From an uncultured Chloroflexia bacterium (GTDB lineage Bacteria > Chloroflexota > Limnocylindria > Limnocylindrales > CSP1-4), in assembly GCA_963700245.1 (NCBI GenBank), contig CAVOWV010000008.1, positions 6,180 through 70,179 on the forward strand: DNA of 64,000 nucleotides. Direction: 5' to 3'. Position numbers and translations under genes: made by a program. The notes beneath the pieces were generated by a model. It made no database searches and was not told where the DNA came from. It was given only the letters and a program-made list of their open reading frames with translations. Positions 8,930 through 10,476 of the stretch are shown in pieces; position 1 is the stretch's first letter; each line of letters opens with the position of its first letter.

Positions 8930-9045
8930 GGCGCCCCTCGCGACTCCACCACGGGTCAGGCGCCCCTCGCGACTCCACCACGGGTCAGGCGCCCCTCGCG
9001 ACTCCACCACGGGTCAGGCGCCCCTCGCGACTCCACCACGGGTCA
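8930..9045. repeat. Four exact tandem copies of 29-bp GGCGCCCCTCGCGACTCCACCACGGGTCA
   Basis: Read directly; each unit holds a CGAC-N10-GTCA box. Confidence 0.95.
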
Positions 9046-9168
9046 CTTCACGCTCCTGTCGAGGAGCTCACCGCCGATCCTGCAGGAATCGAGGCTGAGG
9101 TGCGCTCCGAGACCAGCCTAGCGACTCCCTGCCGTGTCACGGCGGCGCCGGAACCGGATTGGAGGCCG
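9046..9168 (-). repeat. Left arm of long inverted repeat flanking the XRE-nuclease gene
   Basis: 9071-9107 is the exact reverse complement of 10184-10220 and 10308-10344 (37 bp); similarity extends over ~130 bp. Confidence 0.9.
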
Positions 9169-9271
9169 GCGGCGAAGGGGCGAGGTCACAGACCGGCTCG
9201 GCGGGGCCGTCCAGGGCCCCGCGACCACGCCGCGTAAGCCCCCGGTGAGTGTCGAGCGGTAGAACAGCCTC

Positions 9272-10081
9272 GTGACCGATACGACCATCGACCTCACCCG
9301 CTCACGGCTCGGCCCCGAGTTCGGACGCCTCGTGCGGGATGCGCGCCGCCTCATCGGCTGGAGCCAGCGAGATCTGGCTGCTCGTGTCGGTGCCTCGCAG
9401 GCGGCCATCTGGCGGCTCGAGACGGATCAGCCGGGACGCATCGATCTCACGCTCGTCGAGGGGGTGATCGACGCCCTCGGCCTGCGCGCAACCATCGGGA
9501 TCGAGGGGCGGCACCTCGACGATCGGCGTCGCCAGCGCGACGGCGTGCACGCGGTCATGAACGGGTTCACAGCGCGCCGCCTGGGTCGTCTCGGGTGGGC
9601 TACCGCCACGGAGGTCCAGATCGGCGATCGGCACCCGCGTGGCTGGATCGACCTCCTCGCGTTCCGCCGGGATGACCGGGCGCTCCTGGTCGATGAGACC
9701 AAGACGGAGATCCCCGACATGGGAGGGCTACAGCGCAGCCTGTCGTTCTATGCGCGCGAATCCAGGACCGTCGCGGCGGGACTCGGCTGGCAGGCGCGCA
9801 CCATCACCGTCCTGGTGGTGGCCCTGGACTCGGAGTCGCTAGCCAGGCGGATCGCGGACAATCGGGCGATCGTGGAGCAGGCCTTCCCCGGCTCCGTGTC
9901 GGCCATGGTGACGTGGCTCGCCGACCCGCGCGCGCCGATTCCTCGTGGGTGGACGCTCGGAACCGTCGATCCGACGGTCCGCGGCGAGAGCTGGCTTCGT
10001 CCCACGATGCTCGGAACGCGGCGGCGGCCGCCGGCGTATCGGGACTATGCGGACGCGGCAGGCCGCCTGCTCCGTGGATGA
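9272..10081 (+). CDS. XRE-family HTH fused to PD-(D/E)XK-like nuclease domain
   Basis: N-term VRDARRLIGWSQRDLAARVGASQAAIWRLE (XRE HTH); C-term TEV...GWIDLLAF...LLVDETKTE (E..D..ExK). Confidence 0.8.
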   Translation: MTDTTIDLTRSRLGPEFGRLVRDARRLIGWSQRDLAARVGASQAAIWRLETDQPGRIDLTLVEGVIDALGLRATIGIEGRHLDDRRRQRDGVHAVMNGFTARRLGRLGWATATEVQIGDRHPRGWIDLLAFRRDDRALLVDETKTEIPDMGGLQRSLSFYARESRTVAAGLGWQARTITVLVVALDSESLARRIADNRAIVEQAFPGSVSAMVTWLADPRAPIPRGWTLGTVDPTVRGESWLRPTMLGTRRRPPAYRDYADAAGRLLRG

Positions 10082-10119
10082 CGGTCTCCGCCGGCCTCCG
10101 CCGCCTCCGCCGGCCTCCG

Positions 10120-10476
10120 CCGGCCTCCGTATCCGCTTCCGGGCGCCGCCGTGACTCGGGAGGGAGTCGATCCGCGGGTCGCTGAGCGCACCTCAGCCTC
10201 GATTCCTGCAGGATCGGCGGCCAGCTCCCCGGCAGGGTGCCCGGCGTGACTCGGGGCCGAGTCAGGATGCGCACGTGACTCGGGAGGGAGTCGATCCGCG
10301 GGTCGCTGAGCGCACCTCAGCCTCGATTCCTGCAGGATCGGCGGCCAGCTCCCCGGCAGGGTGCCTGGAGTGACTCGGGGCCGAGTCACGACCCGCGCAT
10401 GACACGTGGCTGAGTCACGACCCGCGCGTGACTCGTGGTGGAGTCGCAGATGGCGATGGAGTCGCAGATGGCGATG
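10120..10476 (+). repeat. Right inverted-repeat arm: 114-bp direct duplication (10151-10264 / 10275-10388) plus 29-bp-spaced TGAC-N10-GTCR boxes and an 18-bp doublet
   Basis: Boxes start at 10152, 10247, 10276, 10371, 10400, 10429; GAGTCGCAGATGGCGATG x2 at 10441-10476. Confidence 0.9.

Follow-up and report, generated by a model that had tools for sequence, protein, structure and literature searches.

Many bacterial genomes contain dispersed palindromic repeats. To our knowledge, the REP and REPIN sequences with their RAYT enzymes are the only kind of dispersed palindrome for which a cognate enzyme is known. As far as the sources cited here extend, RAYTs occur as one gene per repeat type, flanked by its own dispersed intergenic repeats, with several types per genome, co-occurrence of gene and repeat, and orphan repeats after gene loss (PMC3337134, PMC5581495, bioRxiv 10.1101/2022.05.22.493013), and the REP itself is outlined as a hairpin of 20-40 nt whose head is GTAG or CGTC (PMC3733652). 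A locus of comparable organization but different parts was analyzed in a 64,000-nt stretch of an uncultured Limnocylindrales genome (contig CAVOWV010000008.1, positions 6,180 to 70,179; hereafter the window). In this locus a single gene, predicted to encode a helix-turn-helix (HTH) protein with a PD-(D/E)XK nuclease domain, lies between inverted copies of a 113-bp repeat. The account favored here, with modest confidence, is that these represent a dispersed repeat family and its cognate site-specific nuclease, which would bind, cleave, and mobilize the repeats and so work like REPIN-RAYT with unrelated parts.

Like the REPIN-RAYT systems of proteobacteria, to the extent that the cited accounts describe them, the locus combines dispersed intergenic repeats with an enzyme gene flanked by cognate repeats. 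Further shared features are one gene copy per repeat type without recent gene duplicates, the possible presence of several repeat types side by side in a genome, a joint distribution of gene and repeat across genomes, and repeats orphaned after gene loss (closed genome G055, below). Unlike those systems, the enzyme combines an HTH with a PD-(D/E)XK domain and is not a HUH/Y1 (IS200/IS605-type) transposase, and the lineage is Chloroflexota. The unit also departs from the REP as outlined in PMC3733652, being 113 bp in length with two 16-bp double-strand-type dyad boxes, a symmetric core, and no exceptional hairpin stability. The likeness is one of analogy only, since the enzyme class and the REP structure, which are defining features of REPIN-RAYT, both differ. 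Y1/RAYT (PF01797) had no match in the host genome (86% complete) and matched six of 14 named control genomes.

The host genome (G000) is of Limnocylindrales type, with 3.53 Mb in 29 contigs and 71.5% G+C, and close relatives carry the names of uncultured Chloroflexota or Candidatus Limnocylindrales metagenome-assembled genomes (MAGs). A preliminary description of the locus took the inverted arms around the gene to be the private ends of one element. Iterated nhmmer searches of the 3.53-Mb genome placed them instead among 49 loci of a genome-wide family on 21 of the 29 contigs, of which the arms represent three, and for this reason the closest analogy is REPIN-RAYT and not a classical transposon. 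The repeat unit of about 113 bp has a symmetric core (GAGCTC..CGATTCC-N3-GGAATCG..GAGCTC) that lies between two 16-bp dyad boxes (GACNC-N6-GNGTC) spaced by 95 nt. In order, the unit comprises a box, about 17 variable nt, GAGGAGCT, the center CGATTCC-N3-GGAATCG, AGCTCCTC, about 17 variable nt, and the second box; the 95-bp separation places both boxes on the same face of the helix. The boxes and their spacing had been recognized correctly in the preliminary description, but their formula, given there as YGAC-N10-GTCR, is better written as above. GACTC-N6-GAGTC occurs 34 times genome-wide compared to a mean of 1.2 at other spacers (2-12) and is the most enriched of all 5-mer dyads with spacers of 2 to 12 in G000. 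Additional boxes at 29-nt spacing were found beside several of the solo copies. None of the 49 loci overlapped a conservative gene set covering 47% of the genome, which was derived from a crude caller based on third-position G+C (GC3). Family members share motifs and not spacers, with a median pairwise identity of 55% and a 95th percentile of 65%. The three copies flanking the gene form the most alike pairs in the family (98, 82, and 80%, the next-best pair being 73%). Two solo copies are located within the window:

41155-41267, no strand assigned: solo element copy (C8:47334-47446), found by nhmmer
53402-53511, no strand assigned: solo element copy (C8:59581-59690), found by nhmmer

The center of the element also occurs in flipped form, with GATTCC/GGAATC either inverted or direct (alignment A2, columns 57-75). 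This was observed even between orthologous copies in G000 and the genome G047 (L115:12103-12215 and L120:12545-12657), where four adjacent bases are reverse-complemented, which points to small inversions or to templated changes in the middle of the dyad.

The preliminary description had allowed for the arms being structured RNAs. According to this explanation, the arms would be structured small RNA genes or transcription terminators and the protein would be incidental. The elements are indeed dyad-symmetric and intergenic, but the proposal is scarcely credible given the results of every RNA analysis performed. No Rfam 15 match was obtained at E <= 1 on either strand of 8000-11500, the arms and the segment 10082-10500 folded with no greater stability than shuffled sequences (z of -0.2 to -1.0), and RNAalifold returned no consensus structure for 45 copies. 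Furthermore, pairing reached 0.3-0.6 in spacer columns compared to 0.9-1.0 in motif columns, and the variable position inside the box showed no covariation. The symmetry of the element is the symmetry of its motifs and not that of a hairpin.

The block that contains the gene, together with its two neighbors, is composed of the following features (window coordinates):

8315-8860, minus strand: marR, left neighbor of the block
8928-10494, no strand assigned: whole block of arrays, elements, and gene (1567 nt), present or absent in one piece
8930-9045, plus strand: left outer array, a 29-nt unit repeated four times without change, with the box GACTCCACCACGGGTC in every unit (at 8942, 8971, 9000, and 9029)
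9029-9139, minus strand: left element copy with boxes 9029-9044 and 9123-9138 and core 9071-9107, matched by nhmmer and the covariance model; 80-82% identity with both right copies
9140-9271, plus strand: leader with a promoter-like motif (CGCGTAAGCC, about 19 nt, TAGAAC, 6 nt, GTG start), putatively the promoter
9272-10081, plus strand: nuclease gene, 269 aa, XRE-type HTH (about 13-76) plus predicted PD-(D/E)XK domain (about 92-244)
10086-10122, plus strand: GC-rich short tandem after the stop codon, two copies of CTCCGCCGGCCTCCGCCG
10152-10264, plus strand: right element copy R1 with boxes 10153-10168 and 10248-10263 and core 10184-10220
10276-10388, plus strand: right element copy R2, tandem duplicate of right copy R1, 98% identical over element columns
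10372-10474, plus strand: right outer array with three boxes in 29-nt steps (10372, 10401, and 10430), followed by two 18-nt units that carry a half-box
10503-11597, minus strand: ABC-2 permease, last permease gene of an ABC-2 operon, right neighbor of the block

The lone gene, its inverted arms, the 37-nt core, the box arrays, and both neighbors were thus all present as first described. The core at 9071-9107 recurs in exact reverse-complement form at 10184-10220 and 10308-10344, and a 24-nt part of it occurs three times in the window compared to zero times in 100 shuffles. The inverted arms (9055-9149 and 10142-10236) are 87% complementary over 95 nt. The right arm is tandemly duplicated (124 nt, 10133-10256 and 10257-10380, 92%), with a box pair inside it 95 nt apart (starts at 10152 and 10247) and further boxes then following every 29 nt (10371, 10400, and 10429). 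The last box of the right array is an inverted match of the left-array box (20 nt, 95%). Terminal inverted repeats of this kind, in the arms as well as the outer boxes, are reminiscent of insertion sequences (IS), yet the arms are also members of the dispersed family. According to the open reading frame (ORF) list and Pfam, the block codes for the nuclease gene alone. In agreement with the earlier claim, no DDE, HUH, tyrosine, or serine recombinase was detected in the block by the Pfam and ORF check, and NCBIfam and PADLOC matched the HTH only. No methyltransferase or toxin partner was found in the block, and its neighbors are marR and the ABC-2 permease.

A pattern of CGCGTAAG(C/T), about 19 nt, and TA(C/G)A.. 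located 6-7 nt before the start codon was observed at 9225-9271 in the window, and the same leader pattern lies upstream of orthologs or homologs in G047, G013, and G016 (loci L070, L011, and L017). The position of this promoter-like pattern only 6-7 nt before the start codon suggests that the putative transcript of the nuclease gene is leaderless. Contigs of the RNA run X17 span 9880-10098 plus parts of neighboring genes and not the arms, and are uninformative on transcription.

The N-terminus of the protein is of XRE type (Pfam HTH_31, E 3.8e-8, 34 bits against a cut-off of 27; HTH_3, 24.2 bits against a cut-off of 23). HipB and restriction-modification (R-M) controller protein structures match this HTH at Z of about 10, with C.AhdI, C.BclI, and C.Esp1396I among the best. 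The C-terminal domain had been proposed to adopt a nuclease fold, and three lines of evidence bear this out: the catalytic motif, the AlphaFold 2 model, and the structural matches. E114, D127, E142, and K144 are invariant in an alignment of 34 of 34 homologs. The model (predicted local distance difference test, pLDDT, 91.5) has an alpha-beta-beta-beta-alpha-beta core, with helices at 91-106 and 150-170 and strands at 110-117, 124-132, 137-144, and 177-185. Residues 92-244 align with Upx, AF1548, Can2, and NucS over 104-117 residues (VIA-align, Z 7.7-8.5), and Foldseek matches include the R2 endonuclease domain, PspGI, and NucS; sequence identity of the domain to its structural matches is 10-20%. 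Since the catalytic motif is invariant, the PD-(D/E)XK assignment is firm even with these moderate Z values, and the modeled domain is a PD-(D/E)XK nuclease fold that may cleave DNA. In its fold over residues 92-244 and its D...ExK motif the protein resembles AF1548, NucS/EndoMS, Can2, and the R2 retrotransposon endonuclease domain, from which it differs in partner domain and genomic setting. No Pfam family covers the nuclease domain, the sole match being DUF5928 (E 0.0085, below cut-off), and searches of the PADLOC defense libraries, NCBIfam, and PDB-sequence profiles matched the HTH and nothing else. Homologs are numerous, constant in length, and nearly all derived from Chloroflexota metagenomes, with the ESM Atlas yielding unnamed Chloroflexota clusters only.

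These structural matches raise the explanation that the protein is a relic, or a solitary restriction or defense nuclease, fused to a controller (C) protein, and that the repeats are unrelated intergenic clutter. The N-terminal profile and fold do match those of R-M C proteins and HipB-type XRE repressors, which bind dyad operators, and PspGI is one of the Foldseek matches. The C-box operator reads GACT-N3-AGTC-N4-GACT-N3-AGTC, with the half-site GACT/AGTC (PMC2175313), and the half-site is thus shared with the boxes. Other empty sites between marR and the ABC genes hold unrelated repeats, as clutter would. However, the spacing differs (GACT-N8-AGTC in the boxes compared to GACT-N3-AGTC in the C-box of PMC2175313), the HTH is fused to a nuclease, and the boxes occur in about 49 dispersed units. 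The block holds a single gene with no separate methyltransferase gene between marR and the ABC-2 permease, and PADLOC matched the HTH only. Clutter would also leave unexplained the recurrent pairing of gene and repeat in other contexts with matched specificities, described below, and we regard this explanation as very improbable.

The pairing of gene and repeat was examined across the genus with R1, a sequence-only covariance model of the repeat built from G000 alone (distinct from the right element copy of the same label). Copies detected with this model flank homologous genes in many genus genomes, and on both sides in loci L070, L011, L074, L075, L077, and L029. In a de novo test independent of the model, the similarity between upstream and downstream flanks exceeded the 95th percentile of a between-locus control in 23 of 48 homologous loci from named MAGs, where about 2.4 would be expected by chance, and the alignments were 106-266 nt long in 21 of these 23. 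The expectation in the preliminary description that the flanks of homologs carry repeats with boxes is thereby upheld. The flanking copies are directly oriented in 13 of the 23 positive loci. Among 60 genus genomes, the protein (E <= 1e-40) was found in 19 of 21 repeat-rich genomes compared to 10 of the 39 others, where repeat-rich denotes at least six R1 matches among the matches listed (at most 56 per genome, counting both strands), with a best E < 1e-6. Fisher's test on this co-occurrence gave p = 1.5e-6, with the qualification that related genomes are not independent. In the closed genome G055 the repeats are present and the gene is reduced to a 52-residue remnant; no element adjoins the remnant, the nearest weak match being 2.2 kb away. 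Paralogs within a genome (22 pairs) share 47-70% identity and occupy other genomic contexts, again with flanking repeats. No near-identical gene copies were found in these 22 pairs in any genome examined, and G000 has a single copy of the close family. At the G013 ortholog (L011), long tandem arrays stand in place of the 29-nt box arrays: an 18-nt unit is repeated about 25 times on one side of the gene, and a 37-nt unit about nine times on the opposite side.

The putative recognition helix and the box half-site vary together. Where the helix reads xWRxE, 13 of 22 loci carry at least three GACNC-N6-GNGTC boxes in their flanks, compared to none of 32 loci with another residue at that position. 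A TSQA..SR or VSQA..SR helix (four loci) is accompanied by GATCC-N6-GGATC, and a TSQS/T..[SC]R helix (four loci) by GAGTC-N6-GACTC. Other subfamilies of the protein are flanked by other repeats of the same plan (5-N6-5 boxes). Both G016 and G008 contain scattered copies of a further repeat type, with CCCTGATCGC at its bounds, that also flanks their orthologs. In G000 there is a single protein of the close family and likewise a single enriched dyad. An HTH dimer reads half-sites spaced 11 bp center to center, as they are in the 5-N6-5 box. The preliminary description had the protein bind the boxes; the co-variation fits such binding.

Presence and absence of the block were compared at the marR|ABC site. 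The site is occupied in five genomes (G000, G047, G013, G004, and G046), with flanking repeats in every one, and empty in 18 genus genomes that have neither the gene nor this repeat in spacers of 107-550 nt. The ABC permease tree places all five genomes with an occupied site within one clade of ten and requires at least three changes. A contig of the metagenome run X8 joins 8927 to 10495, skipping the 1567 nt of the block and carrying 49 other letters at the joint; mismatches to the window number 8 in 159 aligned positions of one flank and 12 in 176 of the other (20 of 335 in total). The presence/absence variation anticipated at this site was therefore observed. The G047 ortholog, which has the same gene orientation as in G000 and retains a box array of the left-array type, is 79% identical, compared to 92% for MarR and 89% for the permease. 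Orthologs at this site rank in the same order as the permeases (79, 62, 62, and 56% compared to 89, 74, 74, and 71%). The G046 ortholog (L094, C12:61611-62348) aligns in two pieces (1-244 and 247-268) that are out of frame and may be frameshifted near its 3' end. The empty marR|ABC sites of G008, G016, and G019 (L089, L091, and L096) hold unrelated repeat arrays, with TGATCA-rich units in G008 and G016, and the site seems, judging by these arrays, to be a repeat hot spot.

The possible rivals to the repeat-family account rank with an autonomous transposon first, then an architectural or regulatory protein, and then the restriction-derived relic. In the first, which corresponds to the preliminary description, the block 8928-10494 would move by its own HTH-PD-(D/E)XK transposase, and the 113-nt solo copies would be derivatives resembling miniature inverted-repeat transposable elements (MITEs). 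The mutually inverted outer arrays, the architecture kept in G047, the absence of the whole block from a close relative and from the marR|ABC site of 18 genomes, and the paralogs flanked again by repeats in other contexts are all consistent with such a transposon. In Tn7, the PD-(D/E)XK nuclease subunit TnsA acts in DNA transposition together with TnsB and TnsC, which are encoded alongside it. The locus is similar to Tn7 and to IS with MITEs in its inverted ends of several putative protein-binding sites, its short non-coding derivatives, and its restriction-fold nuclease. It is dissimilar in being a one-gene block with no DDE or TnsB/TnsC partner, and, unlike a classical IS with MITEs, it shows no near-identical autonomous copies per genome; no target duplication was seen at its diverged flanks. 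TnsA is not among the structural matches listed, which does not by itself exclude a relationship. Against a transposon stand the absence of near-identical gene copies, the single copy in G000, the ranking of ortholog identities like those of the flanking permease as under vertical descent, the fact that no target duplication was seen at the empty sites or the X8 joint, and the direct orientation of flanking copies in 13 of the 23 positive loci. An autonomous transposon is, on balance, unlikely.

Solo copies were also compared between G000 and G047. At six assessable sites, three copies were conserved, two were absent from G047, and one had extra DNA in G047; two directly aligned conserved copies were 72-79% identical compared to 88% for the surrounding DNA. 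At the site with extra DNA, G000 has one element (C16:37339-37449; L116:7340-7450) and G047 has about 8.4 kb more between two elements (C24:1170-9600; L183 and L184), attributable either to a deletion between two copies or to an insertion beside one.

The fate of the solo copies bears on the second rival, in which the protein regulates genes or organizes the nucleoid, with the boxes serving as its operators, the solo elements as a regulon or as architectural sites maintained by selection, and the nuclease-like domain in oligomerization, sensing, or nicking unrelated to mobility. The HTH is closest to HipB and the R-M controller proteins, which are binders of dyad operators, the boxes adjoin the promoter region of the gene itself, and all copies are intergenic. 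The solo copies furthermore keep their motifs with spacers randomized, which resembles selection in place. On the other hand, the catalytic residues show no variation, and a regulon would not normally be built of 113-bp units with a fixed architecture and tandem arrays of boxes. Elements were also gained or lost between G000 and G047 at two of the six assessable sites, and repeats persist in G055 where only a remnant of the gene is left. This explanation appears improbable, somewhat more so than the transposon.

Returning to the repeat family with its cognate nuclease, the following scheme would account for the observations. The XRE-type HTH would read the box half-sites as a dimer, and the PD-(D/E)XK domain would cut or nick in or near the element. 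Acting in trans, the nuclease could be what spreads, turns over, and maintains the solo copies. One gene copy would be kept per repeat type, flanked by those copies of its own repeat that are best preserved, and the block of arrays, elements, and gene would be gained or lost in one piece. A stronger version holds that the HTH-PD-(D/E)XK protein is the sole mobilizing enzyme of a new class of mobile DNA. Its recognition helix would be exchangeable and would read dyad boxes in double-stranded DNA, and the protein would copy or move elements of about 113 bp, and occasionally its own gene block, without a DDE, HUH, tyrosine, or serine recombinase, its specificity having diversified into matched protein and box types within Limnocylindrales. 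This stronger version is put forward tentatively and is doubtful at present.

Several points weigh against the repeat-family account. Binding, cleavage, the position of the cut, and mobilization are all steps that we infer from sequence comparison. By the de novo test, 25 of the 48 homologous loci lack a repeat on both sides, and the co-occurrence has exceptions, with the protein in 10 of the 39 repeat-poor genomes and missing from two of the 21 repeat-rich ones. Many of the genomes compared are incomplete MAGs, and the R1 model, being built from G000 alone, misses other repeat types. The helix and half-site groups are probably clades, in which case the independent co-variation events may number only three or four. 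The solo copies are old, no two of them exceeding 73% identity around a median of 55%, and their low identity gives no sign of a recent burst. Conservation confined to motif positions could mean selection in place on protein-binding sites. The two solo copies absent from G047 sit in indels of about 275-330 nt, longer than the 113-nt unit. Neither a target-site duplication nor exact ends could be defined in the empty-site alignments, the comparisons of G000 with G047, or the metagenome contigs, where the flanks are diverged and the boundaries fuzzy.

The locus looks like a second, independently evolved partnership of repeat and enzyme, in a poorly known uncultured lineage of phylum level, that would use a restriction-fold nuclease guided by a simple HTH reading a 5-N6-5 dyad. 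Should the enzyme act on the repeats, it would represent a new class among the enzymes that shape or move DNA, and the matched helices and half-sites would provide a natural series for studying the evolution of DNA specificity. The origin and upkeep of the repeats would in that case also be testable at the bench, since each component is small. If the protein binds the repeats only, the system would be a genome-wide architectural or regulatory one of an unusual kind. A literature search that reached few subscription journals, and which the spelling 'PD-(D/E)XK' may have escaped, returned no PD-(D/E)XK or XRE protein linked to dispersed palindromic repeats, and with the same coverage of journals no description of repeats in Limnocylindria.

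Just upstream of marR, at 8861-8927 in the window, an AT-richer conserved motif (GTAGATGRTCAAYG..GTGAAGCATAT) was observed that recurs in nearly all genus genomes. By its sequence and position it is probably the marR promoter or operator, with the block starting right after it.

A shorter paralog family (224 aa) shares the HTH plus the D...ExK plan (GSIDVLGW...VIEVKS) at about 34% identity. G000 encodes two members, at C6:13887-14444 (L009:1396-2070, minus strand) and C28:132055-132411 (L010), of which the C28 copy looks frameshifted. The elements nearest to these two paralogs are 3.9 and 6.7 kb away, none being adjacent. Matches of the same grade (30-37% identity, E of about 1e-21 to 1e-27) were present in 14 of 24 other genus genomes.

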